From Nanobdellota archaeon (GTDB lineage: Archaea; Nanobdellota; Nanobdellia; Pacearchaeales; GW2011-AR1), in NCBI GenBank assembly GCA_018830525.1, contig JAHJSH010000017.1:2688-66687 (forward strand): DNA of 64,000 nucleotides. Reading direction: 5' to 3'. The notes under the pieces were generated by a model. The model was given only the letters and a program-made list of their open reading frames with translations, searched no databases and was not told the DNA's origin. Position numbers and translations under genes: made by a program. This document shows positions 1-15,774 of the stretch, in pieces. Numbering within the stretch: position 1 is the stretch's first letter; each line of letters opens with the position of its first letter.

Positions 1-503
1 TAATTCGTGGCGGAACTGAGCATGTTATTGATGAAATTGAACGAGCAATGAAGGATGCGCTTGGAGATGTTGCGGCGACATTGAAAGATTCTAAGGTTGT
101 TGCTGGCGGTGGCGCGGTTGAGATTGAGTTATCTAAAAGATTGAAGGAGTATGCTTCGACATTGAAAGGGCGTGAGCGTTTGGCTGTTGAGGAATTTGCT
201 TCGGCTATGGAATTTATTCCGATAACTTTGGCGGAGAACGCGGGGATGGACCCTATTGATGTTTTGACTGAGCTCCGAGCAAGTCATGATGCTGGGATGA
301 AGAATGTAGGGTTGAATTTATTTAATGGGAAGATTGAGGATACTTTGATGCAGGGGATTATCGAGCCATTGAAAATTAAGACGCAGGCGATTGCTTCAGC
401 TTCGGAAGTTGCGATTATGATTTTGAGAATTGATGATGTTATTGCCGCAAAGAAGATGCAAGGGAATTCTGGGAAATTGGGAAATATGCAGGGGTATGAT
501 TAG
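1..503 (+). CDS. ths: Thermosome (group II chaperonin) subunit, C-terminal part; 5' end outside window
   Basis: Frame 3 open from window edge; [13 protein letters not shown] and [33 protein letters not shown] match the conserved thermosome C-terminal equatorial domain. Confidence 0.9.
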
Positions 504-506
504 ATT

Positions 507-653
507 TTACCAACCAATTTTGTCTAAAATACACTCTATGGTTTCTATACAATCATAGAGTTTTCTTTTAACTTCCACTTTTTCTGTTGGTCCTTGGTAA
601 TCTTCTGGAACTTCATATTTTATTGCATCAATTATTCTTGGGATATTATCCAT
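507..653 (-). CDS. Hypothetical small protein (48 aa)
   Basis: ATG..TAA ORF below track cutoff, convergent with thermosome gene: MDNIPRIIDAIKYEVPEDYQGPTEKVEVKRKLYDCIETIECILDKIGW; no family recognised. Confidence 0.3.
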   Translation of the reverse strand: MDNIPRIIDAIKYEVPEDYQGPTEKVEVKRKLYDCIETIECILDKIGW

Positions 654-703
654 ATAATTTTTTTGTATGTATGTTTAAAAATTTAATTGTTCAAGAAGGT
701 TAA

Positions 704-910
704 ATGCGCGGGCCTCTCAAAATTTGCATCTTGGAAAAATATTCTTATTATTTGTTTTCCTCAAAGCGAATTTCTCGGAATCAAACTCCGATTCCCAAAG
801 TATGCGCGGGCCTCTCAAAATTTGCATCTTGGAAAAATATTCTTATTATTTGTTTTCCTCAAAGCGAATTTCTCGGAATCAAACTCCGATTCCCAAAGTA
901 TGCGCGGGCC
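704..910. repeat. 98-bp tandem repeat: two identical units (704-801, 802-899) plus a third copy of the 11-nt core ATGCGCGGGCC (900-910)
   Basis: Read directly. The core is the reverse complement of the 3' end of tRNA-Gly at 12447-12457. Each unit carries TTTGCATCTTGG (723) and CTCAAAGCGAA (760). Confidence 0.95.
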
Positions 911-1008
911 GCTGACTGGGGCTTCATGGCATCTTCATGCGATGTCTCCCAATAAGTTTTTCTACGCTTATTTTATCGAGATAATTTGGGTTTATAAAAC
1001 TTATTGGA
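900..1008. repeat. Imperfect ~105-bp direct repeat, copy 1 (copy 2 at 7354-7458); att/arm-like
   Basis: ATGCGCSGGCCGCTGACTGGGGYTTCATGGC...GCGATGTC...TTTATCGA...TTTATAAAACTTATT shared by both copies. Confidence 0.85.
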
Positions 1009-1026
1009 ACCTTGTTTTAGTCTTCC

Positions 1027-1434
1027 CTATGAACTAAAAAATAATCCAAAAGCTTCTTCAGGTCTAGTAAATTTTATTCCTTGATATTCTTTTAATTTCA
1101 GAAGATGATTATCATAAGAGATAATGTATTCTGCGTTAGACTCAATAGCACATTCTATAATCTTATTGTCATCAACATCTTCTTTTACAATATCAATTTT
1201 TATATTGGGAATTACCAAAGTTAGAAACTGGAGAATTTTTTCAAGTATTTCTCCAATTTCTTGTTCTTTATAATCAAAATCTCTTGCAAGAATTTCTTTA
1301 TATTCTTCAATTATTTCTTGAGAAGAAAAAATTTGAATATTTTCTTTTATGCATTTAAATAAAAATTTTTGAGCCACACTATTGTCCCATAAGGTAGCAG
1401 AGATTAAAACATTAGTGTCGAGTACAATTTTCAT
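1027..1434 (-). CDS. vapC: PIN-domain ribonuclease toxin (VapC-like)
   Basis: MKIVLDTNVLISA N-terminus with acidic residues typical of PIN; 4-nt overlap with upstream antitoxin ORF. Confidence 0.8.
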   Translation of the reverse strand: MKIVLDTNVLISATLWDNSVAQKFLFKCIKENIQIFSSQEIIEEYKEILARDFDYKEQEIGEILEKILQFLTLVIPNIKIDIVKEDVDDNKIIECAIESNAEYIISYDNHLLKLKEYQGIKFTRPEEAFGLFFSS

Positions 1435-1709
1435 TTTTTCTTATTGTTTCTTGCTTTATGAATCAAATCAAGAACATCTTTTTCTTTGATTCCAAGTTTT
1501 TGTGCTCTTTTTGTTCCTTCTTTTGCTATCTCCTTAAGTTCACAGATTAATTCTTCTTTTGAGGGCATTGCAACTTTCTTTAAAACAATGCTGTCCCTTC
1601 CACTGACTATTGCAAACATAGTTCCCTCTGAAGCACATATTTCTGTCCTCATTCCTAGAGGTATTACTATTTGTCCTTTTGAAGACATCTTTACCATTTC
1701 AACTGTCAT
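1431..1709 (-). CDS. vapB: AbrB/SpoVT-family antitoxin (VapB-like)
   Basis: SSKGQIVIPLGMR swapped-hairpin motif; translationally coupled to the PIN gene. Confidence 0.75.
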   Translation of the reverse strand: MTVEMVKMSSKGQIVIPLGMRTEICASEGTMFAIVSGRDSIVLKKVAMPSKEELICELKEIAKEGTKRAQKLGIKEKDVLDLIHKARNNKKK

Positions 1710-1776
1710 TTTGTTTTTTCCTCCTATTCTTACTTGCTTATTGTAAGATATGCTTACTTATAAATCTTCCTATAAC

Positions 1777-2697
1777 TTAAACTATCTCTTCAGCCATCTC
1801 AATTAATAAAGGCTTGAGCTCCTTGACATAAGCATCAAAGTCCTCTTTGCTGAATGGTTTTATTACAAGTGGGCGAACTTCACTATATTGAAACTCTAAA
1901 GTCTGAAGCCTATCTCTTGCTAAAATAAGATTATTTTTATATTTTTCATAGCTGTTTGTTGAATACATTAATTTTTCTTTTGTTTCCTTAAGGAAGTCTT
2001 GAGGTTTTATCTTAAACTTTTTATAAATAAAAAGAAGATCAATTGCATCTCTTGACTTAATTGCTTTTCTTGTTAATATTGAACGAAATTTCTCTGTTAC
2101 AATTTCCTTAAGGTCATAAACTTTCATTTTTATTGTTTTATAGAAGTCAAGAAATTCTTTAAAATAAACTTGATCTTCTTTTGTGAATTGGCTAGGTTTG
2201 ATTAGAGGATTTAGTTCTTTTGTTTTTGGAGTAAATATTATCTTTTCTAAAAAGTTAATTTGAATTTTAATGAAAGAAGGTTTTCCTGTTAAAACAGAAT
2301 CATAATAAACTTTGAAAGTTACAAGTTTATTGTTATTACCAATTTCAACAAAATTTCTATCTGCTTTATCAAACTTAAAGTCAAATCCTACATTCTTTAG
2401 TTGTTCTCCAAAGACATCTATTTTTTCCTTGCAGATTTTCTTTATGCTTTTAGTTGATTTTCCTTCCCAGAGCTTCTGATCAAGAAACGTAAAATCAAGG
2501 TCTTCTGAAAATCTAAAATAGTCTAAATATGCTTTAGCAAGACAAGTTCCGCCTTTGAATACATATTCTCCAAAATTAAGCTTTGAAAGCAGGATATTAA
2601 GATAAAAATCTTTTTCAATTAATTCTTGAGCAGTTATATTTGTTTTATCTTTTACTGAAGTTAAAAAGTTCTTTAGTTTATCTTTATCTATTTCCAT
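1777..2697 (-). CDS. AbiEii/AbiGii-family nucleotidyltransferase toxin
   Basis: FKGGTCLAKAYLDYFRFSEDLDF motif typical of AbiEii NTases; start overlaps stop of upstream AbiEi-like gene. Confidence 0.75.
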   Translation of the reverse strand: MEIDKDKLKNFLTSVKDKTNITAQELIEKDFYLNILLSKLNFGEYVFKGGTCLAKAYLDYFRFSEDLDFTFLDQKLWEGKSTKSIKKICKEKIDVFGEQLKNVGFDFKFDKADRNFVEIGNNNKLVTFKVYYDSVLTGKPSFIKIQINFLEKIIFTPKTKELNPLIKPSQFTKEDQVYFKEFLDFYKTIKMKVYDLKEIVTEKFRSILTRKAIKSRDAIDLLFIYKKFKIKPQDFLKETKEKLMYSTNSYEKYKNNLILARDRLQTLEFQYSEVRPLVIKPFSKEDFDAYVKELKPLLIEMAEEIV

Positions 2698-3299
2698 TAT
2701 AGCATCTCCTTTATTTTCTTTTTGACTATTCGATTATATTTATTTGATTCCTTTAAAAAAAGTGATTTATTAAATTTATATTCTTTTAAGTCTACATTTT
2801 TCTTTAGATAAATCATATCAAGTAATGTTTTTTCTATATTGCTATAATAAATAAATATATTGTTTGAAGTGTTTTCTTTCTTCATATCAAAAAATAAAGA
2901 TGGTTTTAGTTTCATAAAAAAGAAACTTGAGCCAGCGATTTTCATTGGTTTTGTTCTATTGAATTTATCATTAATTACTATATTTACTGGAAACACTTCA
3001 TGAGTTAAGCCAAGAAATTTTAATGCAGTATTCAACCCAAAATACCATTTAACATTTTTCTTTTCTAGACCAAGAGCTAACAACTCATAAGGAGAATATT
3101 TTAAAGAATTTAATTTCTTTTCTTCATAATCTTTTAAATAATAAACTCCCCTAAAAATAGTTATGAGATAACCTTTGTTTAGCATAACTCTTCTTAGTGT
3201 ATCTCTATCGAATTTATACTTAGTTGCCAAGCTATCAAAATCTTTCCTTGTTAAGATTTTACCCTTTGCTTCTCTTAAAATTGTATCTATTTTATTCAT
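2697..3299 (-). CDS. AbiEi-like antitoxin/transcriptional regulator
   Basis: N-terminal wHTH-like region (ILTRKDFDSLA...RGVYYL) and position directly upstream of the AbiEii gene. Confidence 0.6.
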   Translation of the reverse strand: MNKIDTILREAKGKILTRKDFDSLATKYKFDRDTLRRVMLNKGYLITIFRGVYYLKDYEEKKLNSLKYSPYELLALGLEKKNVKWYFGLNTALKFLGLTHEVFPVNIVINDKFNRTKPMKIAGSSFFFMKLKPSLFFDMKKENTSNNIFIYYSNIEKTLLDMIYLKKNVDLKEYKFNKSLFLKESNKYNRIVKKKIKEML

Positions 3300-3563
3300 A
3301 ACTTAATTCACCTTATTAGGTGAAATATAATATGTTTATAAATCTTTCGTCTCAATCCTTCAGTCCTTTAGAATACATATAACTGTCAGAAAACCTATCA
3401 AAACTCCTCAAAAATGCACATACGAAAATTCCGTATGTCTGAGGCTAGTTGTCGTCGTTCTGTCATGCTAAATAAGGTATTTTAGTCAGCTCTGTATATA
3501 TGTAGGTAGGGGTAGGGACTAGGAGGGGATAACTTAACTCTTAAGGATAAAAAAGAGGGAGGA

Positions 3564-6500
3564 CTATTTGAAAACTAAATATTTATTGTGATGTTTTTTT
3601 CTATGTTTAATTCTTATAAATAATAATCCTAGGCCTAATAATATTATAACTAAAACAAAGATAGCAAAATATTTTAAATAATTATTTTCTTTATCTTTGA
3701 TAATTTCATCAGTCTTTTCTTCAACCCCATTCTCTTGCTTAATAATTCCTTTTTCAATGGTTTCATTAATTGATTTAATATAAATATTAGCCATTGTTTG
3801 TGTAACATTATTTAATTTAACATAAATATCATAAGTATTATCATTATTCAAATTAATTTTCCATTCATCTCCAATAAAAAGAGTTTTTGTTTGAGGGGTA
3901 GAAGAGATAGTTATTGTTGCAGTTTTATTTGTGTTATTGATATTAATAACTTTCAGTTTATGATTTTCATTATTTAATTTAAAACTAATTTCCCAATTTT
4001 TCCCAAGAGATTTTGTATAGCCTTGTTCAAGATTTAATTGAGTAGGATAATATGTTGGAAGACCTCCGCCTGAAGATGATGCCGGAGTTTCTTCAACAGG
4101 AACAGCAACACTAAAAGAAACATTCATTGTATCATTTCTATTTCCAGAAGTATCATTGCAGTAAAAGTTTGCAGTATAGCTTCCATCAGCAAGTGAAGAT
4201 AAAGTTTTTGTGAATGTTAAATTATCTGTTGTATCCATTGAAACATTTACCACCCCGACATTTGCCGAATACAAGCATGTTCCATTCTCATCTAGAGTAA
4301 CATTTAGAAGAACTGACGAAGTTGTATAGGTCATTGCTGTCGGAGAATTGATGGTGATTTGTGGACTAATTGAATCTATAAAAAAGGTTGCAGAACTTGA
4401 ATTAATGTTACCCATAATATCTTGTGCGTAAGCAGTTAATATATGGGTCCCTTCAGTTAATTCTGTAAAATTACTAGAGTATTTATTTGTTGAAGCATTA
4501 TATAATGCAAGAATTTCATTGTTAGTAAGAGCTTTATTAAAAACCATAATATCATCTACGCTCCCATTAAAGGGATATGTTGGATCACTAATTACCCATT
4601 GTCCATTAATCTGAGTTAAATTAGTACCATCCCTATCCTTCCAATCAGATAACTCTCCATCTAAATATAAATAGATTTTGTCTTTATCATAAACTGCAAC
4701 AATTTGATGCCATATATTTTTAGTCCAATCTGAATTAGATATTGTTGGTCTAATAGCATGTCCTTCATCTGTAGATATTTTAAGAACTAAAGTATCTGAA
4801 GTTTCACTAAAAAACAATCCTTCATCGGTTGTCGTCCTTAATAAACGACTTCCGGTTGTTAAATCAGAAATACTCCAATCTGTCTTTGCCCAAAGTGCAA
4901 AAGTCATATTACTTGTGATATTTAATGTATTTAATCTTGCTTTTTTATATCTCCCATCATACAATGTAGGATTAATATAAGAACTTGCAACTAATAAAGA
5001 ACCATCTTTTAATTCAGTAAATCCTTCAGTTGTCGATATTCCAGTTTTAGTATGCAAAAAATTAAAATTATCATCATAAACTACATATCTATAAGTAGAG
5101 TTATATGTAGCCAGAACCCAGTTTCCATGGTATCTCTCCATAGCTTCAATTCCATAAGTCCCCCTAGGTTTTTCATCCATAAGAGTATGTTTTTTAACAA
5201 AGCCAAAGGACGAATTAAACTCATAAACCTCCAAAGGTATATCTTCAGCATCATAAGGATATCCACCGAGCATATAAAAACTATTATTATAGCAAGCAAC
5301 ACCCCCATTTGCATATTCTATCTCATCTAAATAATGTGACCCTATTAAAGATAAATCTGTTGCATTATAAACCGTAAGATTATTGTGGCTTGATTCGGTA
5401 TCTCCATACAAATAACCATCAGTCCACCCCCCATATATTTTACCATCGGCATAACAAATATCTCCAAGATGCTTGGACACAGAAGTATTAGTTATGATTG
5501 TCCCATTAAAATACGTTTTTACTAAGTTATTAGTATAACTCCAATATATATTCTCATCATCATCAACGGCAACTCCTTGGAGGTGTAGTGATGTTTGGAT
5601 AGGGCTATAAGTATAATCTTCCTCTTGATAAAAGTCTCCACTAAAACCACTAAGTGATTTCCCATAATAAAGATTAATTACGTCTGCCCCAGGTATCTGT
5701 GCACCAATTCCAAACTTCCCACTACTTATATTATAAGTTGCATTAAATGCATTATTATTATTCATCATATCTCTAAAATAGGATTTCCCATAGAAATCAG
5801 TAGAGAGATTATCAAATCTTATCCAGGTTACTAATGAGTTATCAAAATTATTCACAACAAAATATTCATTTGCATCGGATGAAGAAACATTTACAAAGAT
5901 AGATTTTAATGCATAATGATTAAAATTAATAAGGCTATCCCATATAAATGAAATTAAAGGAAACGTTGTATCTTTAATGAAGTAAATTTCTTCAGTATTT
6001 ATATTACTGGCTGTATCATTACAGTAAAAATTTGCAGTATAACTTCCATCATCAATTGAAGAATGTGTGTAATTATAATCTTCAACGGCAGTAGTATTAG
6101 TCATAGTATAATTTGCAATTCCGCCATTTAATGTAAACCAACAAGAATCGGTAGTACTGTTTAAATCAATGGCAGTCATGTTAAAATTATAAAGATTTAA
6201 GTTATATTTTGAGTTATTTACTGGATAATTTATTGTTATTGCTGGACCCACATCATCTATGCTTTGATTAGTATTAAAGATACTGGTAGCATTTGTGATA
6301 TCCGCTGATGAATCTTGAGAATATGCAATAAGACTATGACTTCCATCAATGAATGATTTTTGATAATTTATAGACGTAGCACTATATAATGCATTAATTT
6401 CTTCTTGGTTTAAGCTTCTATTAAAAACAATAACATCATCTATTGAACCATTAAAAAATCTAACAGCCCCATGATAACCAGCACCAATTATTTCTCCAGC

Positions 6501-7271
6501 ATAGGACAGTATATCTTTCTTTGGTACCGTACCTGAGAGAGTATTTACAGTAGGAATTCCCGCAACAGTATTTTTATAACAAGTAATACTTGTTCCATTA
6601 TAAATTGCAATAATATTGGCCCATTGGTTTAAGCTAACTGCTGGACAATTTGCAATAATAATGTCTGTAGAGTTACCAACAATTGCATGAGGGGTCAAGA
6701 CGTTTATATCTACAGAATAAGCTCTTTTGGGAGCACCCCCTCCATGAGACATTCCAAAGATGTCCGTAGAAGCCTCAAGGTTAGAAACCGGATATATCCA
6801 AGTACTTATTGTAAAATTGCTTCCATCGGGAATTGTTTGTTGTGCTGTTGGAAACATTATATAACCCGAAGTACCATCATAAGTTACAGATTTTCCAAAA
6901 TATCCAGTATCATTTAAAACAATATTTCCAGTGAGGGTCCCATTATTTGTTCCCAGATAATCTGTAATGCTATTTACACTTCCGTTATTATCATCCATTC
7001 TCCACCAAGAAACAAGAGAATTATCTAAATTGATTACAGTAGAGTTAGAATTAGAAGAGATTACATTGATATAGGGAAATGAAGAAACGTTTGAACCATC
7101 AATTGGATTTATTATACTAACTGAAGGTAAAGCAAAACCCAAATTTATTAATAATAACAAACCTACAATCAATCCAAAAATCAAAAATCTTTTCCTAATT
7201 AAATGGAAAGAACTTGCTTCGCCCCCCCCCCAACTAAAATTATTTCCAAATAGTATCGACTCTTTTTTCAT
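3564..7271 (-). CDS. Giant surface protein, 1235 aa, with two LamG/concanavalin-like lectin modules, N-terminal signal/TM and C-terminal TM anchor
   Basis: Two LamG_3-type endings (DDVIVFNRSLNQEEINALY; VDDIMVFNKALTNNEILALYN), Asn/Ser/Thr-rich, C-terminal FAIFVLVIILLGLGLLFIRIKHRKK anchor. Confidence 0.75.
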   Translation of the reverse strand: MKKESILFGNNFSWGGGEASSFHLIRKRFLIFGLIVGLLLLINLGFALPSVSIINPIDGSNVSSFPYINVISSNSNSTVINLDNSLVSWWRMDDNNGSVNSITDYLGTNNGTLTGNIVLNDTGYFGKSVTYDGTSGYIMFPTAQQTIPDGSNFTISTWIYPVSNLEASTDIFGMSHGGGAPKRAYSVDINVLTPHAIVGNSTDIIIANCPAVSLNQWANIIAIYNGTSITCYKNTVAGIPTVNTLSGTVPKKDILSYAGEIIGAGYHGAVRFFNGSIDDVIVFNRSLNQEEINALYSATSINYQKSFIDGSHSLIAYSQDSSADITNATSIFNTNQSIDDVGPAITINYPVNNSKYNLNLYNFNMTAIDLNSTTDSCWFTLNGGIANYTMTNTTAVEDYNYTHSSIDDGSYTANFYCNDTASNINTEEIYFIKDTTFPLISFIWDSLINFNHYALKSIFVNVSSSDANEYFVVNNFDNSLVTWIRFDNLSTDFYGKSYFRDMMNNNNAFNATYNISSGKFGIGAQIPGADVINLYYGKSLSGFSGDFYQEEDYTYSPIQTSLHLQGVAVDDDENIYWSYTNNLVKTYFNGTIITNTSVSKHLGDICYADGKIYGGWTDGYLYGDTESSHNNLTVYNATDLSLIGSHYLDEIEYANGGVACYNNSFYMLGGYPYDAEDIPLEVYEFNSSFGFVKKHTLMDEKPRGTYGIEAMERYHGNWVLATYNSTYRYVVYDDNFNFLHTKTGISTTEGFTELKDGSLLVASSYINPTLYDGRYKKARLNTLNITSNMTFALWAKTDWSISDLTTGSRLLRTTTDEGLFFSETSDTLVLKISTDEGHAIRPTISNSDWTKNIWHQIVAVYDKDKIYLYLDGELSDWKDRDGTNLTQINGQWVISDPTYPFNGSVDDIMVFNKALTNNEILALYNASTNKYSSNFTELTEGTHILTAYAQDIMGNINSSSATFFIDSISPQITINSPTAMTYTTSSVLLNVTLDENGTCLYSANVGVVNVSMDTTDNLTFTKTLSSLADGSYTANFYCNDTSGNRNDTMNVSFSVAVPVEETPASSSGGGLPTYYPTQLNLEQGYTKSLGKNWEISFKLNNENHKLKVININNTNKTATITISSTPQTKTLFIGDEWKINLNNDNTYDIYVKLNNVTQTMANIYIKSINETIEKGIIKQENGVEEKTDEIIKDKENNYLKYFAIFVLVIILLGLGLLFIRIKHRKKHHNKYLVFK

Positions 7272-7324
7272 ATCCTTCTTAATAATTTATACATTTTAAA
7301 CTTTGTCTTTAAAATATTTAACAG

Positions 7325-7365
7325 ACATCGCACAGATTAACCATAAAGGCTTTATGCGCCGGCCG
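7325..7365. repeat. 41-bp direct repeat, copy 1 (copy 2 at 12417-12457), covering tRNA-Gly 3' end plus downstream flank
   Basis: ACATCGCACAGATTARCCATAAARGCTTTATGCGCSGGCCG, 3 mismatches between copies. Confidence 0.9.
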
Positions 7366-7458
7366 CTGACTGGGGTTTCATGGCTTTTCTAGCGATGTCG
7401 CCTAATTAGGGTTTGCGCCAATTTATCGAACTTTGGAGAGTTTATAAAACTTATTAGG
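7354..7458. repeat. Imperfect ~105-bp direct repeat, copy 2 (copy 1 at 900-1008)
   Basis: See copy 1; lies between the att core and the integrase gene, as an element arm would. Confidence 0.85.
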
Positions 7459-7605
7459 TTAGCTTGATATTAGTCTTTCTCCCGTCACCATCTTGTGACA
7501 TAAAAAGTCTAAAAATCATTTATAAATCTTGTCGCATGTCAATGGATATATTCCTTCTCGACAAGATATAAAAGTCGCATTGTCTTACACTTATGTCGAT
7601 GGACA

Positions 7606-8778
7606 ATGGAGAAAATCGACCCCTATAAACATAAAGAAAGATACCTTAGGTGGAAGGAGAAAATACAATCAACAATCCCAGAAATAAGCAAAGAAAATTC
7701 TGATTTAATATTGCAATATCTTAGAGATATGGAAAATGGAGTTAATATTGCAAGAGGTGTTAAAAAGGGCTCAAGAAGCTACATTCGACTTAACACTCTA
7801 AGGCAAAGAATGGTCTTTCTATCTAAAGAGTTTAAGGCTAGATTTGATTTAGACATACTTACTGGAATAAATGAAGCTCAATTATTTGAATTTTTCCAAG
7901 ATTTAAGAAGCGGTAAAATTGCCCGACGAGATGGAAAAACCTTCAAATCAGTTAAAGATTTTGCAAAAGACTTCAAGGCATTTTGGCATTGGTATCAAAA
8001 AAGAAACAAGAAAATAGGGAATGATATTTTTGACATAAGTGCAGATTTAGATGTAACTGGTGAAAAACCCGAATGGGTTTATCTGACAGAGGATGAAATA
8101 AAAAAACTGGCAGAAGCATCAAAATATTATTACAAGGTTTTAATCTGGTTTTTATTTGACTCTGGAATTCGAGCCCCCACAGAACTAATGAACATTAAAG
8201 TTTCGGATTTTTTCAATGACTTTAAGGAGTTAAATATTAGGCAGGAAATTAGCAAGACTTTTGGACGAAGAGTAAAACTGTTGATTTGCCATCAACTAAT
8301 AAAAGAATTTGTAAAAAACAATAATTTAGGTAATGATTCTTATTTGTTTACAACTATGCCCTATGATGTAAATAAATACCTTAAAAGGCTTGGAAAGCGG
8401 GTTCTTGGCGATGAAAAGAGCCCTGCAGGGGAGAAATACTCAAACATTACAATGTACGACTTTCGGCATTGTTCATGCTGTTATTGGCTTCCAAGGTATA
8501 AATCTGAATCTGCTTTGAAATATAGATTTGGATGGAAAAAATCTGAAAAAATCCATTATTATTCTGAATTACTGGGCATGAAAGATACAATCTCTGAAGA
8601 GGATTTATTGATTGATGTTACAAAAATAGAACTTGAGAGAAGAATAGACAAGGCAGAGAAAGAAAATCAAATGTTAAAAGAAGACAACGAGCAGATGAAA
8701 ATTCAAATCGCAACAATCGCTCAGCTTACTGCAGAAATGTATGCTCAAATGAAAGAAATTCAAGAGTTAGAGGCTTAA
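7606..8778 (+). CDS. int: Tyrosine recombinase/integrase
   Basis: C-terminal catalytic region (GIRAPTEL, YDFRHCSCCYW, HYYSELLG); paralogous to the ORFs at 40826 and 60346; adjacent to att repeat. Confidence 0.85.
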   Translation: MEKIDPYKHKERYLRWKEKIQSTIPEISKENSDLILQYLRDMENGVNIARGVKKGSRSYIRLNTLRQRMVFLSKEFKARFDLDILTGINEAQLFEFFQDLRSGKIARRDGKTFKSVKDFAKDFKAFWHWYQKRNKKIGNDIFDISADLDVTGEKPEWVYLTEDEIKKLAEASKYYYKVLIWFLFDSGIRAPTELMNIKVSDFFNDFKELNIRQEISKTFGRRVKLLICHQLIKEFVKNNNLGNDSYLFTTMPYDVNKYLKRLGKRVLGDEKSPAGEKYSNITMYDFRHCSCCYWLPRYKSESALKYRFGWKKSEKIHYYSELLGMKDTISEEDLLIDVTKIELERRIDKAEKENQMLKEDNEQMKIQIATIAQLTAEMYAQMKEIQELEA

Positions 8779-9035
8779 TGGAAAAAACAAAAGAATTAGA
8801 AAAAGAAATGCAGAAATTAAAAAAGAATGCAAAAAGACAAAAATGGATAAATGTTTATCTGCTTTGGAGCAGATAGGAGGCAAAGGTAGAATCAACAATT
8901 TTTCAACAAATAGTCAACCAAAGCACTGAATTTAATAATTCTGTAGACTATGCTCTGAATCTAATTTTTAATGGTTCTTTTTTAACATGGATAATCCTAG
9001 GGATATTTGGGATTTTCGTTTTATGGTTAATTTGG

Positions 9036-9746
9036 ATGAGGATACTCTTAATTTTTGATTTCTTAAACATGAAACATGAACTTAATAAGCCTGAAAAAGT
9101 CCAGAAAAAATATACTGAAAAGAAGATTTCTAAAGGGGTTAAAAAAACTAAAGAAAAAGCAAAAGAAAAGCATAGCAAGATTTGTAAGAAGAAAGAAAAT
9201 GAGGAGAATGATGAAGAGGCAGCGAAACACCCCAACAGAATAACCCCTGAGATGTATACAAAAAGCAAGATAGTTCCTGACCAAAAAGTTTATCTTAAAA
9301 AAGAGCTGGATGAATCTGATTTGGCTTTTTTAACTTCAGAGGGATTTATAGAAACCGAGCAGACAAATATTGATGGTCAGAAAAGAAATTATATAGTTTT
9401 CAATGATAAATTCGAGTCTCCCATCCACATTATATGCATCAAAGAAATTGTTGACTATCTAAAAGATTTTACAGAAGAAATAAAGACCTACAGAACAGTA
9501 ATGCCTGACATTGTTTTTACTCATAATAACAAAGAGCACGCAATAGAGGTTGAGACAGGAGTAATTATTAAGAGAGACAAGAAGAAACTGCGGAATAAAA
9601 TTGATTTGTTGAATAAAAGATATGGAAATAATTGGTTTTTCTTTGTCACAAATAGAAATTTAGAGAAAGAATATTCCAAACTAGGTGAAACTTCAACCAA
9701 AAGAAATATCAAATCAAAAATCAACAAAATCTTTCAAAATTATTAA
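9036..9746 (+). CDS. Hypothetical protein: Lys-rich N-terminus, C-terminal PD-(D/E)xK-like nuclease motif; start uncertain
   Basis: MPDIVFTHNNKEHAIEVETGVIIK resembles a PD..(E/D)xK core; weak assignment. Confidence 0.45.
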   Translation: MRILLIFDFLNMKHELNKPEKVQKKYTEKKISKGVKKTKEKAKEKHSKICKKKENEENDEEAAKHPNRITPEMYTKSKIVPDQKVYLKKELDESDLAFLTSEGFIETEQTNIDGQKRNYIVFNDKFESPIHIICIKEIVDYLKDFTEEIKTYRTVMPDIVFTHNNKEHAIEVETGVIIKRDKKKLRNKIDLLNKRYGNNWFFFVTNRNLEKEYSKLGETSTKRNIKSKINKIFQNY

Positions 9747-9944
9747 AAATAGGCAAATTTGCCACTGAAGAAATCTTGGTGGCACACTGGTTCTTCGTCA
9801 TAAAAAATCTGCAAAAATGGCAAAGAGTCACCCCCAAAATATAGACATATTGATACTAGTGACTGTAGGGGAGAGGGAGCAAGACATCTACTTTATTTTT
9901 CTGAAAAAGAAAATTTAATAAACCTATTTATAATTCTTATAATT

Positions 9945-10724
9945 ATGAAAAAAGAAGGGTTTGATGTAAGGGTTGTTTCTTATGAGCATATCCATAATAT
10001 TCAACCAGAGGATGAAGAGGCAATGATTAAAGCTATAAATCCTAAACCTAAAGAAAAAGTTTTGGATGCTTTTTGTGGTTATGGTGCAGTTGGTAGAAAT
10101 TGTCTGGAAAAAGAGCCGAAAATAGATTTATGGCTTAATGACGAAAGTGAAGTTCAGATTAAAAGAGCTAAGAATAATCTTTCCAAAATTCCAAAAAATC
10201 ACTTTATTTGTAGCGAATTTGAAGAGGCTAATTTTTTGAATTCTTCTTTTGATAAGGTTATTATCAAAATGGGTTTACATGAAGTTCCTAAGAATGAGCA
10301 GTTAATCGTAGCTAAAAAAGTTTTTAGAATTTTAAAGCCAAAAGGCAAGTTTATTGTTTGGGATATTATGTTAACCAAAGAAACTCAATTGTTATGGCAA
10401 GAAATAATCCGTAAAAAAGACGAGTTGTCAGGATTCGATATGCTTGTTAAAGAACGATATTTCTTTAGAGAAGATGAGTTTCTGAGCAATATGAAAAAAG
10501 CGGGATTCAAGAAAATAAAAGAGTTTCGCATTGTTAAGTATAGATTTTCTTCAAGAAAAAGATTAGAACAAGAGTTACATAATGATAAAAAACGTTTAGA
10601 ACAACTTAATGAATTTATTAGAAAGAAATTCCCAGATAACCTAAAGAAAAAATTAAATTATAACGACTTGGGAGATGATGTTCAATTTAATACTATTAAG
10701 AAAATCTTTGTTATGGGAAAGTAA
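9945..10724 (+). CDS. Class I SAM-dependent methyltransferase
   Basis: VLDAFCGYGAVG (motif I) and LKPKGKFIVWD; C-terminal ~110 aa shared with the next ORF. Confidence 0.8.
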   Translation: MKKEGFDVRVVSYEHIHNIQPEDEEAMIKAINPKPKEKVLDAFCGYGAVGRNCLEKEPKIDLWLNDESEVQIKRAKNNLSKIPKNHFICSEFEEANFLNSSFDKVIIKMGLHEVPKNEQLIVAKKVFRILKPKGKFIVWDIMLTKETQLLWQEIIRKKDELSGFDMLVKERYFFREDEFLSNMKKAGFKKIKEFRIVKYRFSSRKRLEQELHNDKKRLEQLNEFIRKKFPDNLKKKLNYNDLGDDVQFNTIKKIFVMGK

Positions 10725-10806
10725 TATTCTATTTAGATAACAGTCTTTTTGTGGTATTTTGTTGCGATGTCGATAAATTTATAACAGCATTAAGAATAAA
10801 TTATAT

Positions 10807-11742
10807 ATGAAAGGAAGAACTTCAGGATTGATTGGGATTTGCTCTCTGATTTTATCTGTAGTGTTTTTATCTAGGAATATAACTGGGTACTCTATTGCAA
10901 ATCTAACTCAAACTTCTTTAAATTTTGCAGGTATTGTCTTTTTCTTGGTTGGCTTATTATGCTCTTTTATTTACATGAAGAGTCCCTATCTTCTGCTTAA
11001 AAGAGACAATGCAAATCTTCATAATATAAGCCAAGTTGATATAAAAAAATTTGTTGATATAGCAGACATAAAAAAAGGGATGTATATTTTAGATGCCATG
11101 TGTGGTAAAAGTGAAATAGGACAAGAGATAGAAAAGATAGACGGAGTCAAACTTTATTTATCAGATAATGCAAAGTTTCAACTAGATGAGGCAAAAAAAG
11201 TTATTAAAAATGCTAAATTTTTTACAGCTTCTGTTCTTGACATGCCTTTTAAAAATAATTATTTTGATAGAGTTTTTATTAAAAGTGGAGTTTACGAAGT
11301 CCCAAAGAAAAATCAGGTTAAATTATACAAAGAAGTTTTAAGAGTCCTTAAACCAAAAGGTTTATTTCTAAATTGGACTTTTTTGTTAAACAAAAATAAT
11401 CAAAAATTCTTCCAAGATATAGTTAGAAATAAAGATAAATCTGCTGGTTTTGAGGATTTATTTAAGAATAGATACTTTATGACTAAAGATGAAGTGTATG
11501 AGGATATTAAAAAGGCAGGGTTTAGGAATATAAAATTTTATGATTTGAATATTTATTATACACTTTCAACAAAAAAATGGTGTGAAGTAGATTTTCAAGG
11601 AGACAAAGCAAAAAAGGTAAAGTTAGGTAATTTTATTATGGAACAAATTGGTGGCAAAGATATAATTGGAATGGAAGTGATTATAGAAAAAGGAGATATT
11701 AAACTTAAAATCCCTGCGTTAATTTCAATAGCAATAAAATAA
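10807..11742 (+). CDS. Class I SAM-dependent methyltransferase paralog with N-terminal TM segments
   Basis: ILDAMCGKSEIG, LKPKGLFLNW, shared KD(E/K)(L/S)(S/A)GF...RYF...KKAGF tail; two hydrophobic helices at the N-terminus. Confidence 0.75.
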   Translation: MKGRTSGLIGICSLILSVVFLSRNITGYSIANLTQTSLNFAGIVFFLVGLLCSFIYMKSPYLLLKRDNANLHNISQVDIKKFVDIADIKKGMYILDAMCGKSEIGQEIEKIDGVKLYLSDNAKFQLDEAKKVIKNAKFFTASVLDMPFKNNYFDRVFIKSGVYEVPKKNQVKLYKEVLRVLKPKGLFLNWTFLLNKNNQKFFQDIVRNKDKSAGFEDLFKNRYFMTKDEVYEDIKKAGFRNIKFYDLNIYYTLSTKKWCEVDFQGDKAKKVKLGNFIMEQIGGKDIIGMEVIIEKGDIKLKIPALISIAIK

Positions 11743-11756
11743 ATCTTATATCAGAA

Positions 11757-12353
11757 TCAATTAGTTTCCGTATTTCTTAAACTTTTTATGTCTCTTGCCA
11801 TATTTTCTTGAAGAAAAGCTAAGGCGGGTTGTTGTGCTCGTAAATATGTATAAAGTCTTTCAGATTCACTTCTTCTGGGGAGTTCTTTAGGAGGTTCTAT
11901 AATTTTTCCTTGCAAAACCTGAAGTCTATATTCGAGTCCTGCTTTAAACATTTCTAATTGTTCTGGCATCAATGGTCTAATATCTGTTCTCTCAAAATGA
12001 TGTTTTGGGTAGCTTCCACTAAAAAATGGGTCGTCTGCAATCATCCTAACTATGCTCTCTGCTTCTTCTTCTGAAATGTCATACGCTAGTTTATTAATTT
12101 GACCATTGCTGATTGTGTAATTTGTAGAATTATTTTTGTGTATCCATCGAGCAACTTCCTGACCAGTTTCATAAAACATTTTATTGTCCCAATTACTGGT
12201 AGAAAATTTATTCTTTGTAAACTTTTTGTCATCTCCACCTAGTTGAAAATTATAATAGCCATCAAAACCTACAAGTATCTCAACAGGACTATCTTTGCCT
12301 GAATTTTGCATTTCTTTAGCAGTTGTTGTTTCATCCATTTTTGAACTTATCAC
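11757..12353 (-). CDS. Hypothetical protein (198 aa)
   Basis: Long ORF with no competing frame; no family recognised. Confidence 0.5.
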   Translation of the reverse strand: MISSKMDETTTAKEMQNSGKDSPVEILVGFDGYYNFQLGGDDKKFTKNKFSTSNWDNKMFYETGQEVARWIHKNNSTNYTISNGQINKLAYDISEEEAESIVRMIADDPFFSGSYPKHHFERTDIRPLMPEQLEMFKAGLEYRLQVLQGKIIEPPKELPRRSESERLYTYLRAQQPALAFLQENMARDIKSLRNTETN

Positions 12354-12416
12354 AGAACTCTTCTTACCCCTAGGCTAATTTAGTAATAGGATGGGGTTTT
12401 TAAGCTTTCCTAACCC

Positions 12417-12457
12417 ACATCGCACAGATTAGCCATAAAAGCTTTATGCGCGGGCCG
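12417..12457. repeat. 41-bp direct repeat, copy 2 (partner 7325-7365)
   Basis: Overlaps the last 11 nt of tRNA-Gly and 30 nt of its downstream flank. Confidence 0.9.
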
Positions 12458-12518
12458 GGAATCGGACCCGGGCCCCAACGTTGGCAACGTCGAATAATAA
12501 CCACTATACTACCCGCGC
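12447..12518 (-). tRNA. tRNA-Gly(GCC), 72 nt, no encoded CCA
   Basis: Hand-folded cloverleaf: acceptor GCGCGGG/CCCGCGC, anticodon arm CGACG-TTGCCAA-CGTTG, T arm CCGGG-TCCGATT-CCCGG (C at position 55 is atypical); TTTATAA box ~27-33 nt upstream. Confidence 0.88.
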
Positions 12519-12520
12519 AT
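12478..12520. repeat. 43-bp perfect direct repeat, copy 1 (copy 2 at 14087-14129), covering the 5' 41 nt of tRNA-Gly
   Basis: ACGTTGGCAACGTCGAATAATAACCACTATACTACCCGCGCAT identical at both sites. Confidence 0.95.
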
Positions 12521-12851
12521 TAAGATTCTATCACTTTAGCGACTTATAAATTTTATTGTCAGGATTGGAAAGTTATGGCGCGCAGATATAAGGTTCCGAA
12601 AGATGAGCTTTTATGGAACAAGATGAAAAAACTATCTATATTTCGGATAGCAAATTGAACGAATTACTTGCTATTGCGAAACGGATAGAAAAATTGACAC
12701 GGGGGAATAGGGTGATTAGGGATTGATAGGGGAAAGAGGTTTTATGATGGTTAGAACTATGTGCATGATTATTTAGGCTTAGTTTTAATCCTTTTAATAC
12801 TTTTTTTATAAAAATAGTTAATTATTTAAACTAAGATATCCTGGGGATTAA

Positions 12852-14009
12852 ATGCCAACAAGATACGATGTATTTGCTAAAATCATTGAAAAATCTCCTT
12901 GTAAACCAAAAGATTTGGGATTTAAAACTCCAGTGTATATACATATCAATTATTTAGAATCTATAGGGTGGATAAAAAAATCTAATCAGGGAATTCTTAC
13001 CCCTATGTTAAATAAAAAAACTACTGAGGCGTTTGAAATTATAAAATGGTCCTTAAAAAATAATGTGAATCTAAATCTCTGGTTCAGTGAAAATTTTAAA
13101 AAAATATTAGAAGTATTAACAAAAAAAAGTCCTAAGATTAATCCAAAACAGCTTTCGGCAAATGCAAGAAATAACATGATAATTGATTTCCTTGTTAAGG
13201 ATCAATTTATCTTAATTTATAAAAAAAGTCCAAAATTAGGGACGTTACTAAATCATAGTATGTTCAATTTTTTAAAGGATTATCACGAACAAAAATTTAA
13301 GATTAATGAAAAATATTTACCTTTCGAAAATATTAGTAAATTGGTGTTAAAAACCAAAAGGAGAGAACTTAATCCATTTGAATTAAAGCTTTTTGAATTC
13401 TTGGCAGGTTCTGCTCAACTTGAGGGGGGAACTGTAACTATTGGAGAGACAGTAGAAATTCTGACAAAAGATGTTTACCCGGATAAACCTGCAAAAGATA
13501 TACAGATGGTTAAAAATCTCAATGAAGCATTTAGATATATTTTAAAACACTTGAATGAAAAGATTACAATGAACCATATTCAGGAGATAAATAAACTGTG
13601 TTTATTCTCCTTACATAGGGGGGCAGGCTTATTTAAAAAAAATCATAATAAAATAGCTGGAAATCCTGATTTTAAAACCGCTCACCCAAAAGAAGTTATA
13701 CCCTTATTACTGAATTTTTGTGAGAAATTTAATTCTATCAAATCAAGAGAAGAAGCATTAAATGAATTAGGATTTATTCACAATGAGTTTCAACATATCC
13801 ACCCATTTTCTGATGGGAATAGTAGGGCTACTCGTCTTATTCTAAATTGGTTTTTAATGAAATTTAAATTACCAATCTTAATTTTAAAGAAAGGTTCCTT
13901 TGAAAAATATATGTCCTTAACCAAAATGTCTAAAATAAGAAATGATAAAGAATTGAAAAATTTCTTGCTTCATATAATTTACCATGAAGAATTAGTTAAA
14001 AATGATTAA
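12852..14009 (+). CDS. fic: Fic/DOC-family protein (putative AMPylase) with N-terminal wHTH-like region
   Basis: HIHPFSDGNSRATRL matches the Fic motif HxFx(D/E)GNxRxxR; paralog at 50162. Confidence 0.85.
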   Translation: MPTRYDVFAKIIEKSPCKPKDLGFKTPVYIHINYLESIGWIKKSNQGILTPMLNKKTTEAFEIIKWSLKNNVNLNLWFSENFKKILEVLTKKSPKINPKQLSANARNNMIIDFLVKDQFILIYKKSPKLGTLLNHSMFNFLKDYHEQKFKINEKYLPFENISKLVLKTKRRELNPFELKLFEFLAGSAQLEGGTVTIGETVEILTKDVYPDKPAKDIQMVKNLNEAFRYILKHLNEKITMNHIQEINKLCLFSLHRGAGLFKKNHNKIAGNPDFKTAHPKEVIPLLLNFCEKFNSIKSREEALNELGFIHNEFQHIHPFSDGNSRATRLILNWFLMKFKLPILILKKGSFEKYMSLTKMSKIRNDKELKNFLLHIIYHEELVKND

Positions 14010-14086
14010 TTTTTATAAATTCTTTATAAAAAAAGTTAATTAATTGATAAACTCTTTTTAAATTTTGAACTGAATTGTTCTCCAGG

Positions 14087-14127
14087 ACGTTGGCAACGTC
14101 GAATAATAACCACTATACTACCCGCGC
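14087..14127 (-). pseudogene. Orphan 5' half of tRNA-Gly(GCC) (nt 1-41)
   Basis: Identical to the 5' 41 nt of the intact gene at 12478-12518; no 3' half follows. Confidence 0.9.
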
Positions 14128-14392
14128 ATGTTTATCTCAAAATTCTTATGTTTAAAAGTTTAATCATAAGATAGATAATTTTAAATAACGTCTTTTTCTA
14201 GTAATTATATGATAAGCTTACGGAGTTATCCCCATCACTTTATGTGAAGATTTTTCTAGTCGTGACTCTATACCCTACCAAATATACAAATTGAATTCGG
14301 CGGGGCATGCTAACAATAAGCTTTTTATATCGGATTCCCAACTAAATAATATGGCTATGAACAACTCAAGAAGTTCAATGGTCAACAATAAT

Positions 14393-14464
14393 GACGGTTG
14401 TAGTTCAATGGTAGAATGTACGGTTGTGGTCCGTGAGACGCGGGTTCGATTCCCGCCTTCCGTC
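14393..14464 (+). tRNA. tRNA-His(GUG) with encoded G-1
   Basis: Anticodon arm TACGG-TTGTGGT-CCGTG, T arm GCGGG-TTCGATT-CCCGC, G-1:C73. Acceptor ACGGTTG/CTTCCGT has two adjacent U:U mismatches (5:68, 6:67). Confidence 0.65.
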
Positions 14465-14465
14465 C

Positions 14466-14570
14466 TTTTGGCGAGAACCGAACAAGTTCAATCCAACTCA
14501 CAATTTGCATTTCGCAAAAATAAAAATAGTGAGATGGTTGCTCAAAGCGAATTGTTCGCACCTCCCGTCC
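14466..14570. repeat. Miniature tRNA-flank module (95 nt) plus 10-nt near-repeat of the tRNA-His 3' end
   Basis: TTTGCATTTCG (14504), CTCAAAGCGAA (14541), hairpin GCGAA-TTG-TTCGC; CCTTCCGTCC (14456) versus CCTCCCGTCC (14561). Confidence 0.6.
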
Positions 14571-14580
14571 TGAGATTAAA

Positions 14581-15774
14581 ATGGTGAAAACTGATAAAGT
14601 AAAGGGCTTTCAGGATTTTGTTGGAGATGAAGCTCTGAAGCGTGCGAAGATTATGAAAATTATTCAGGAGCAGTTTGAACTTTACGGTTTTGAGCCGGCT
14701 GAGACTCCGACGATGGAGTTTGAAGAATTTGTTAAGGGAGATAATCCTAATGATGAAGCGGTACGTGATGTGTTTAAGTTGGAAGATCGGGGTGGGCGGA
14801 AGTTGGCCTTGAGATATGAATTTACTTTTCAATTGAAGAGGATTGCAAAGAACCAGAAGTTGCCGTACAAGAGATTTCAGATTGGTGTTGTCTTTAGAGA
14901 TGAGCCGATTAGGGAGGGGAGAAGCAGACAATTTATCCAGTGTGATGTTGATAGTGTTGGGAGTTCGATAAAAGATGAGGCGGAGATTTTGGCGGTTGTT
15001 GATGGGATTTTTAAGAAGCTTGGGATCTCGGTGAAGGTCTATATTAATAATAGGAAATTGATAAATGAAATTTTGGTTTCAGAGAATATTGCAGAGAGGG
15101 ATAGGGAGCAAGTGATTAGAGAGTTAGATAAATTGGATAAATTGTCTCCAAAGGAAGTTGCAGATACCCTTTCAGGGCACAAGAACCTGCCCGCAGGTAA
15201 TTTGAAAAAGATTGGGGCTGAAAAATTAGTAAAAATTTTTACTGGAAAGGAAAAGGATTTTGTTAAATATAATTTTTATAAGGAAATTAAGGAGTTGAAG
15301 AAATATTGCAAGAGTTATGGGGTTAGTGTTGAGTTTCGGCCTTTTTTGGCGCGGGGACTTTCGTATTATAATGGTTCGGTTTTTGAAGTGTGGTCAAAAG
15401 AATTAAAGGTATCGCTTGCTGGGGGGGGAAGTTACCTTGTAGATAAAGTTCAAGCCAGCGGTATTGCTTTTGGGTTTGAGCCAATTAATTTGTTGGCGAA
15501 GGTGGACGGCGATAAGACCAAGGTTCAGATTATTTCGGTTGGGCAAGATAAGGAAGCGATAGAATTGGCCGGGAAGCTTCGGGGGGCAGGAATTTCTACA
15601 ATTTTACTTTTGGATAAGTCCATTGGAAAGGCCTTGGATTATGCTAATTCAAAAGGTGTTGCAAAGGTTATTTTTGTTGGGGCTGAAGAAGTTAAGAAAG
15701 GAAAGTTTAAGGTTAAGGATATGAAGACTGGGAAAGAAGAATTCTTGGGCGAAGATAAGATTTTGAAGATTTAG
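14581..15774 (+). CDS. hisS: Histidyl-tRNA synthetase
   Basis: Class II motifs: KGFQDFVGDEA, FRDEPIREGRSRQFIQCDVDSVG (motif 2), LAGGGSY (motif 3), C-terminal anticodon-binding domain. Confidence 0.85.
   Translation: MVKTDKVKGFQDFVGDEALKRAKIMKIIQEQFELYGFEPAETPTMEFEEFVKGDNPNDEAVRDVFKLEDRGGRKLALRYEFTFQLKRIAKNQKLPYKRFQIGVVFRDEPIREGRSRQFIQCDVDSVGSSIKDEAEILAVVDGIFKKLGISVKVYINNRKLINEILVSENIAERDREQVIRELDKLDKLSPKEVADTLSGHKNLPAGNLKKIGAEKLVKIFTGKEKDFVKYNFYKEIKELKKYCKSYGVSVEFRPFLARGLSYYNGSVFEVWSKELKVSLAGGGSYLVDKVQASGIAFGFEPINLLAKVDGDKTKVQIISVGQDKEAIELAGKLRGAGISTILLLDKSIGKALDYANSKGVAKVIFVGAEEVKKGKFKVKDMKTGKEEFLGEDKILKI

Follow-up and report, generated by a model that had tools for sequence, protein, structure and literature searches.

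A head-to-tail array of integrated segments at the 3' end of a tRNA-Gly(GCC) gene in a Nanobdellota archaeon

In the 64,000-nucleotide stretch of a Nanobdellota archaeon analysed here (the window, C15:2688-66687 of a 0.96-Mb, 35-contig metagenome-assembled genome (MAG); all coordinates are in window numbering), about 11.7 kb of DNA (704-12445) is inserted and has entered stepwise at the 3' end of one tRNA-Gly gene. Very probably this is the outcome of tandem site-specific integration, which has left a head-to-tail array of four segments between a thermosome gene and tRNA-Gly(GCC): two identical mini-modules, an integrase-less element (E1), and an element with an intact tyrosine integrase (E2). 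An initial annotation of the sequence had proposed tandem integrations at this gene; the array is real, although two of its four segments are 87-nt mini-modules rather than integrase elements.

The array and its empty site

The array and its flanks are made up as follows.

3-503, + strand: C-terminal end of the thermosome (Cpn60/TCP-1; Pfam PF00118, 4.8e-56), the conserved left chromosomal flank
504-703: spacer of 200 bp, with a 48-aa open reading frame (ORF) at 507-653 (- strand)
704-801, + strand: core copy 1 (704-714) and an 87-nt mini-module (715-801) carrying the TTGCAT..CAAAGCGAA motif pair
802-899, + strand: core copy 2 (802-812) and an 87-nt mini-module (813-899), 100% identical to 704-801
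900-7353, + strand: E1, 6454 bp with one core; both attachment (att) arms, no integrase
7354-12445, + strand: E2, 5092 bp with one core
12446-12456: core copy 5, at the 3' end of tRNA-Gly and running into the tRNA
12447-12518, - strand: tRNA-Gly(GCC), the attachment site (ARAGORN; Rfam RF00005, 57 bits)

The core that punctuates the array, ATGCGCSGGCC, has five matches in the window (704, 802, 900, 7354, and 12446), where 0.2 would be expected by chance, and none of 100 shuffles reached this number. The five copies had been recognised in the initial annotation, including the one at 7354 with its single mismatch, a C instead of G at position 7; the last copy starts at 12446, one nucleotide before the position given there. 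The core had also been described as the last 11 nt of tRNA-Gly. It does lie at the 3' end of the gene; read in the tRNA sense, it starts with the final two bases of the T stem, continues through the 7-nt 3' strand of the acceptor stem and the discriminator A, and closes with a single nucleotide of the trailer, and it thus includes 10 nt of the tRNA. Between the copies at 900 and 12446, the identity extends over 12 nt. The tRNA gene is intact, the direct repeats matching its 3' end bound the element, and the GC content falls to 0.24-0.33 within the array from 0.38-0.39 in both flanks.

The corresponding empty site, which the initial annotation had suggested seeking in relatives, is found in G013, a genome of the same genus. 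In this genome, the thermosome stop codon, 17 bp, tRNA-Gly, tRNA-His, and the histidyl-tRNA synthetase (HisRS) gene follow one another, while in the window 11.9 kb lie between the thermosome and tRNA-Gly. Relatives with the same genes and no repeats had been named as the finding that would count against integration; G013 instead has none of the inserted genes. Its identity with the window is 87% for the thermosome (last 166 residues), 99% for the tRNA, and 72% for HisRS. Furthermore, the 8 nt that border the G013 core on its left side (AAGGTTAA) recur unchanged at window positions 696-703, the last 8 nt of the 504-703 spacer, which are consequently the native 3' flank of tRNA-Gly; this flank identity extends to the genome G002. 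The thermosome also adjoins tRNA-Gly in G009, G011, G022, and G027. The empty site in G013 indicates that 704-12445 is inserted DNA. The distribution of the insertion is patchy, as expected of a mobile element, since only 3 of the 201 family genomes sampled have the Y-arm junction (core + GCTG), and no other genome was found that carries the same E1-E2 pair. As for the spacer, no match to 504-703 was found in the spacers of relatives, in the rest of the genome, or in the region upstream of the integrase in G002; it may be another remnant.

The junctions are also seen outside the MAG. Window positions 1-14600 were compared with the Logan contigs of four groundwater metagenome runs (X1 to X4) from different samples and studies, all of which carry parts of the window sequence. 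The junction at 900 is spanned by contigs in X2, X3, and X4, and that at 7354 by contigs in X1 and X4, one X1 contig reaching from 4110 to 12507. In X1 the 98-nt unit formed by a core and its mini-module has a depth of 44.5, twice that of its neighbours (18-22).

The integrase element, its integrase-less relative, and their arms

The 5.1-kb segment had been called an integrase element, and E2 does carry an intact tyrosine recombinase between its two arms.

7354-7364: E2 core, ATGCGCCGGCC
7365-7477: E2 Y arm
7606-8778, + strand: tyrosine integrase, 390 aa, intact
9036-9746, + strand: orf236, PD-(D/E)xK-like partner, 236 aa
9945-10724 and 10807-11742, + strand: two S-adenosylmethionine (SAM) methyltransferases
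11757-12353, - strand: orf198, an ORF without a family match
12411-12445: E2 X arm

The product of 7606-8778 is, as judged from its sequence and structural model, a divergent tyrosine integrase with the pNOB8-type R..YxxR..Y signature and the XerA/Cre/lambda-Int fold. The candidate catalytic residues R189, K217, Y284 (which replaces His), R287, W310, and Y318/Y319 are invariant in 17 homologues. A profile of these homologues matches the archaeal XerA structures 5hxy (1.3e-5) and 4a8e (7.4e-5), and Y284-D-F-R287 aligns to the HxLRH of XerA 4a8e, with Y284 on the first His. The top 50 Foldseek matches of the AlphaFold model, whose predicted local distance difference test (pLDDT) score is 79, are all tyrosine recombinases, among them XerA, Tn1549 Int, Cre, IntI, XerH, and lambda Int. 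Pfam PF00589 (Phage_integrase) was not detected in the protein even at an E of 10, and the NCBIfam match is a partial one to XerA (1.2e-8), far below the cut-off. Following the catalytic Tyr, residues 338-389 (window 8617-8775) are modelled as a single C-terminal helix of about 50 residues, coiled-coil-like, which is kept in the family consensus and missing from the matched XerA, Cre, and lambda Int chains. The gene is unsplit, and a distance of 241 nt separates its start codon from the core, which is upstream; with the gene intact and att upstream, the enzyme behaves as a class II (lambda-like) integrase and not as one of the SSV type.

Homologues of orf236 lie directly downstream of the integrase in more than 20 loci and share a conserved C-terminal domain with an H..PD..ExE..K pattern. 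The model (pLDDT 85) resembles PD-(D/E)xK nucleases, among them Cdn1/Can2, YaeQ, Hjc, and NucS, with weak matches (best E 5.6e-4), and the protein could be an accessory or directionality factor. The homologues are often extended at the N-terminus by 100-200 residues of membrane or coiled-coil type (for example L067, 7264-8145). The ORF next to the tRNA, orf198, was considered as a second recombinase and rejected, having no similarity to the integrase and no family match.

E1 and E2 share two arms. To the left of the core, the X arm (7319-7364 versus 12411-12456) is identical at 41 of 46 positions; this is the repeat that had been described as 41 bp long and as extending into the downstream flank of the tRNA; its length is 46-47 nt. 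To the right, the Y arm (900-1024 versus 7354-7477) is identical at 101 of 118 aligned positions; the repeat of about 105 bp noted earlier (900-1008 / 7354-7458) is part of it, and it is indeed the arm between core and integrase in the intact element. Overall, the arms of E1 and E2 differ at 11-14% of aligned positions. The two arms carry inverted copies of a motif of about 20 nt (ACATCGCA..A..GCCAT), placed 9 and 15 nt from the core, and these motifs are putative binding sites of the integrase.

The 6.4-kb element E1 has the same two arms with other genes between them.

900-910: E1 core, with a shared G at 911
911-1024: E1 Y arm
1027-1434, - strand: PIN toxin (Pfam/PADLOC)
1431-1709, - strand: MazE/AbrB-like antitoxin, forming a VapBC-like pair with the PIN protein
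1777-2697, - strand: AbiEii (PADLOC 3.6e-57)
2697-3299, - strand: AbiEi (PADLOC 1.1e-37)
3564-7271, - strand: LamG/Big_13 protein of 1235 aa (Pfam/PADLOC)
7319-7353: E1 X arm

All five genes are full length, and the Pfam and PADLOC matches agree with the earlier assignment of VapBC, AbiE, and a LamG protein to this element. It had been described as older and as having lost its integrase. Both arms are present, and no pseudogene fragment of the integrase or of orf236 was found in E1; its age and the loss are matters of interpretation. The homology between E1 and E2 extends about 60 nt past the arm repeat, into the region of E2 that leads up to the integrase gene, and ends 3 nt before the PIN stop codon. 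Because it runs on past the arm in this way and stops at the end of the PIN gene, it suggests that E1 lost its integrase end by deletion. E1 is thus an integrase-less segment flanked by arms homologous to those of E2 (911-1024, 7319-7353), the arrangement seen in accretions of the cis-mobilisable element (CIME) type. Since both arm motifs are kept, E1, or E1 and E2 together, could in principle still be moved by the E2 enzyme.

The integrase family, the mini-modules, and the Fic islet

The integrase belongs to a family with four copies in this genome and members in 20 of 41 near relatives. Among species-representative genomes, homologues were found at 61 loci, in MAGs labelled Woesearchaeota, Pacearchaeota, or Nanoarchaeota. 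At no fewer than 26 of these 61 DPANN loci, the start of the integrase follows the end of a co-oriented tRNA gene at a distance of about 50-350 nt, and the family as a whole adjoins many different tRNAs. We found no published description of it. Fic genes recur as cargo near its members, at L060, L071, L083, L111, and L114 and on contig C22 of this genome.

Within the subclade that targets tRNA-Gly, all junctions fit one scheme, with the core written ATGCGCGGGCC. On the X side, the order is GACATCGCAC.A..A.GCCAT, N9, core; on the Y side, it is core, GCTGAC, N9, ATGGCAT.TT...GCGATGTC. In six of six elements, X and Y are reverse complements of each other, with at most 5 of 500 shuffles reaching the observed score. 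The arms of L065 have a different sequence (GAGTGGTCACGAAAAGACCA), again mirrored on both sides, and this co-variation points to protein binding sites. In searches for the attP-type pattern GCCAT-N9-core-GCTGAC, viral contigs gave 0 matches, and the single metagenome-contig match, on a GC-rich non-archaeal contig, was discarded as a chance match. A 16-nt core+GCTGA pattern was swamped by chance matches in GC-rich bacteria when applied to genome contigs and was not used.

The side on which the integrase gene lies varies. In L061, a 4.2-kb element at tRNA-Gly(GCC), the integrase is at the distal (Y) arm, as in the window, and L059 has an X-core-Y tandem junction upstream of the integrase, like that at 7354. 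In L060 and L062, which adjoin tRNA-Gly(UCC), the integrase is at the X arm, proximal to the tRNA; in L062, both junctions are present, with the Y arm at the far junction. In the integrase tree, the L060 + L062 clade (support 99/98) is nested among the distal-arm members, and it lies within a subclade (96/95) whose outgroups show the common arrangement, with the integrase proximal to the tRNA. This placement implies at least two changes in the side on which the integrase gene lies. If the mirrored arms of a circular element recombined with each other, the core would come to lie inverted with respect to everything else in it. From this, a broad extension can be framed, in which the tRNA 3' core and the palindromic arms constitute a DPANN-wide, tRNA-anchored cassette system, with one integrase family stacking, shuffling, and exporting integrase-less, arm-matched cassettes such as E1. 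Because the arms are mirror images, the body of such an element could flip relative to the core, which would place the integrase gene at either end. We regard this extension as speculative and improbable as a whole.

As a side observation, the tRNA-Gly(UCC) genes targeted by the integrase clade carry a 17-nt intron; the loci concerned are L060 5718-5808, L062 2208-2298, L065 11874-11963, and L061 10015-10378. ARAGORN reports a 291-nt "intron" in the tRNA-Gly(GCC) of L061, which may be an insertion instead.

The two 98-nt units at the distal end of the array (704-801 and 802-899) are identical and are of another kind. The exact motif pair TTGCAT-N15-50-CAAAGCGAA has eight matches in the genome, two of which are these units; the other six lie at most 133 bp from a tRNA gene (Val twice, His, Ser twice, and Pro), a proximity for which about 2% would be expected by chance. 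These counts rest on an exact search, because tolerating mismatches gave too much noise against the AT-rich background of the genome. At tRNA-Val and tRNA-Ser, too, modules are found in pairs. The mini-modules are therefore a different, tRNA-associated family of mini-insertions and not integrase elements. They probably adjoined tRNA-Gly earlier and were displaced by the entry of E1 and E2. The same order is seen in L065, which has an extra core and mini-module at its distal end. Two other interpretations of the mini-module were rejected: as a miniature element with X and Y arms, because its ends form no inverted repeats (by eye), and as a structured RNA, because it folds no better than shuffles (z about -1) and has no Rfam match. 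A further module with the TTGCAT..CAAAGCGAA motifs lies at 14466-14560, between tRNA-His and hisS, flanked by CCTTCCGTCC and CCTCCCGTCC; its orientation to the tRNA is opposite to that of the modules at tRNA-Gly, Ser, Val, and Pro. In addition, the tRNA-Ser predicted by ARAGORN at 30315-30395, which adjoins two mini-modules, has the anticodon AGA (A34), unusual for archaea.

On its other side, tRNA-Gly borders a separate insertion.

12478-14129: Fic islet, inserted in the 5' half of tRNA-Gly, with perfect 43-nt direct repeats (12478-12520 / 14087-14129)
12852-14009: Fic gene (Pfam Fic; PADLOC SoFic/PDC-S04)

The 43-nt repeat corresponds to tRNA-Gly positions 1-41 plus two upstream nucleotides. 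Given this duplication of the 5' half, the functional tRNA-Gly now stands behind upstream DNA supplied by the islet, and the gap between tRNA-Gly and tRNA-His is 1875 bp here versus 129 bp in G002 and 625 bp in G013. The islet holds a lone Fic gene with 331 and 77 bp left beside it and has neither an integrase nor split-integrase fragments. In its long duplication of the 5' half of a tRNA, it resembles the products of pTN3-like integrases, which target the 5' half of tRNA genes (PMC8371274), and it differs from them in lacking an integrase, whole or split. The 9-mer ATGCGCGGG marks each end of the tRNA-Gly gene, the two copies being inverted relative to each other (12446-12454 and 12512-12520); it consists of one strand of the acceptor stem and two adjoining bases, which are the two upstream nucleotides at the 5' end and the discriminator with a single trailer nucleotide at the 3' end, and the outer edge of the 43-nt repeat stops exactly on it. 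In X1, a Logan contig (depth 16) leads from 14457, at the 3' end of tRNA-His, back to 13295 within the Fic gene, the two positions being separated by 16 other letters; this may be the locus of a relative or a rearranged variant. Small inserts of other kinds are found at the same tRNA-Gly in two relatives. In G022 (L055, G022:C3, 7405-7613), a two-hairpin insert of about 104 bp is present and about 48 nt of the 5' part of the tRNA are duplicated; in G011 (L054, G011:C19, 7926-8063), there is a 55-bp insert flanked by GGCTCGCGCAT.

Mechanism, alternative readings, and known systems

The following mechanism can be proposed for the array. In its circular form, E2 would present an attP made up of X arm, core, and Y arm; recombination of this site with the 3' end of tRNA-Gly by the E2 integrase would regenerate the tRNA and leave a copy of the core at the far end of the element. 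E1 would be a relative of E2 that entered in the same way and kept both arms while its integrase disappeared. Repeated lambda-type integration at one attB would then give an accretion array in which each segment starts with the core ATGCGCSGGCC(G). Integrase binding to the arms, the order of events, the deletion of the E1 integrase, and the mobility of E1 or of E1 + E2 through the E2 integrase are steps that we infer from the sequence rather than observe. If position 7 of the core lies in the strand-exchange region, excision of the E1 + E2 composite would be favoured over that of either element alone.

Several points weigh against tandem, still workable integration at this gene. X1 may be the source sample of the MAG itself and so not fully independent. 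Neither a core-to-core joint, nor an excised circle, nor an empty-site branch was found in the assembled contigs of the four runs, contigs being prone to drop rare variants. The array looks alike in the runs that carry it and thus may be fixed and inactive, and the position-7 mismatch in the 7354 core could hinder excision of E1 or E2 singly. Furthermore, the order of insertion cannot be read from the sequence, since position in the array gives no order, and the 200 bp at 504-703 are without explanation.

Some of these points lead to the alternative that survives best, namely that the array is a fixed fossil, an island that is now ordinary chromosome and on whose sites the integrase no longer acts. 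The same junctions in runs of different studies and the lack of alternative joints at the cores in the contigs would fit this idea. However, no conserved residue is missing from the intact integrase ORF, the arms are preserved, and contigs cannot reveal rare excision events. Thus, a fossil array is a serious possibility that we nonetheless consider somewhat doubtful.

A second alternative concerns E1, which could be a working non-autonomous cassette, moved in trans by integrases like that of E2, in the manner of cis-mobilisable elements next to integrative and conjugative elements (ICEs). Both of its arm motifs and all five of its genes are intact, and in L059 an integrase-less, core-bounded segment lies distal to the integrase. 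Yet that segment has no Y arm, and the stretch of about 60 nt of E2-homologous sequence beyond the arm of E1 ends exactly at the end of a cargo gene, like a deletion scar. We think it unlikely that E1 is such a cassette.

It is a little less likely still that E1 and E2 arrived as one pre-assembled composite, with the accretion having taken place in an earlier host and a single integration here. This would account for the identity of the 900 and 12446 cores over 12 nt and the mismatch in the internal 7354 core, and the X-core-Y internal junction upstream of the integrase in L059 implies that composites circulate. On the other hand, nothing separates a single event from two sequential ones, the arms of the two elements differ to the extent given above, and the pair has not been met in a second genome. 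Finally, that the region is native chromosome, with repeats due to chance, low-complexity matches, or local duplications, has only an AT-rich background with many weak repeats in its favour and is scarcely credible, being refuted by the empty site in G013 and contradicted by the core statistics, the drop in GC, an integrase with cognate arms, and the differing gene contents of E1 and E2.

Tandem site-specific integration is accordingly the reading to be compared with known systems. Among its closest counterparts in organisation are the accretions of ICEs and CIMEs in Streptococcus and the tandem genomic islands at bacterial tRNA genes, in which integrase-bearing and integrase-less elements stand head-to-tail with shared att sites, and these sites allow excision singly or as a composite. 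In contrast to those arrays, there is no conjugation module here, the host is an archaeon, and the mobilisation of E1 is putative. An integron does not describe the locus: the IntI model gives a score of only 15 bits where the cut-off is 265, the segments are delimited by tRNA-derived cores and arm repeats rather than by attC hairpins, and they contain several genes, in both orientations.

For archaeal systems, there are records both of elements integrating in tandem at a single locus and of integrase genes being lost afterwards (PMC8371274). E2 resembles the pNOB8-type (class II, lambda-like) elements of She et al., as reviewed in PMC8371274, in that the integrase gene stays intact on integration and the core overlaps the 3' end of a tRNA that is regenerated. 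The likeness of the enzyme is one of signature, R..YxxR..Y as stated in that review (PMC8371274), where sequence clusters are delimited at 30% identity over 60% of the length. E2 differs from this type in its DPANN (Pacearchaeota/Woesearchaeota-type) host; in an integrase that is missed by Pfam Phage_integrase, only remotely XerA-like, and extended by a long C-terminal helix; and in arms that are inverted repeats, with the integrase gene at either arm. From the SSV-type (suicidal) integrases, in which attP lies within the gene and splits it on integration, E2 differs in its intact gene with att upstream. The haloarchaeal pleolipovirus SNJ2 uses a 14-bp core at the 3' end of tRNA-Met with conserved P and P' arms (PMC5861418). 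The short core in the 3'-distal acceptor region of a tRNA is a common trait (14 bp in SNJ2, 11-12 nt here), whereas the conserved neighbour of the integrase in our case is a PD-(D/E)xK-like protein and no virus genes are present. DPANN archaea are absent from the text of the 2021 review of archaeal tyrosine recombinases (PMC8371274). Thus, the mode of insertion is itself ordinary for mobile DNA, and the locus is a tandem and very clean case of it; the novelty lies in the lineage, in a divergent clade of integrases accompanied by a nuclease-like partner, in the mirrored arms, and in the presence of the integrase gene at either side.

The genomes of DPANN archaea are tiny, and these organisms rely on hosts. 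To our knowledge, the ways in which they acquire defence genes and the large surface proteins that are thought to mediate cell contact are poorly known. The locus, together with its empty-site control, indicates that integrase elements accumulating at a tRNA gene bring such genes with them, here those for VapBC, AbiE, methyltransferases, and a LamG protein of 1235 aa. With an 11-12-nt core, two inverted 20-nt arm motifs, and an intact integrase, it also offers a compact recombination system from an uncultured lineage.

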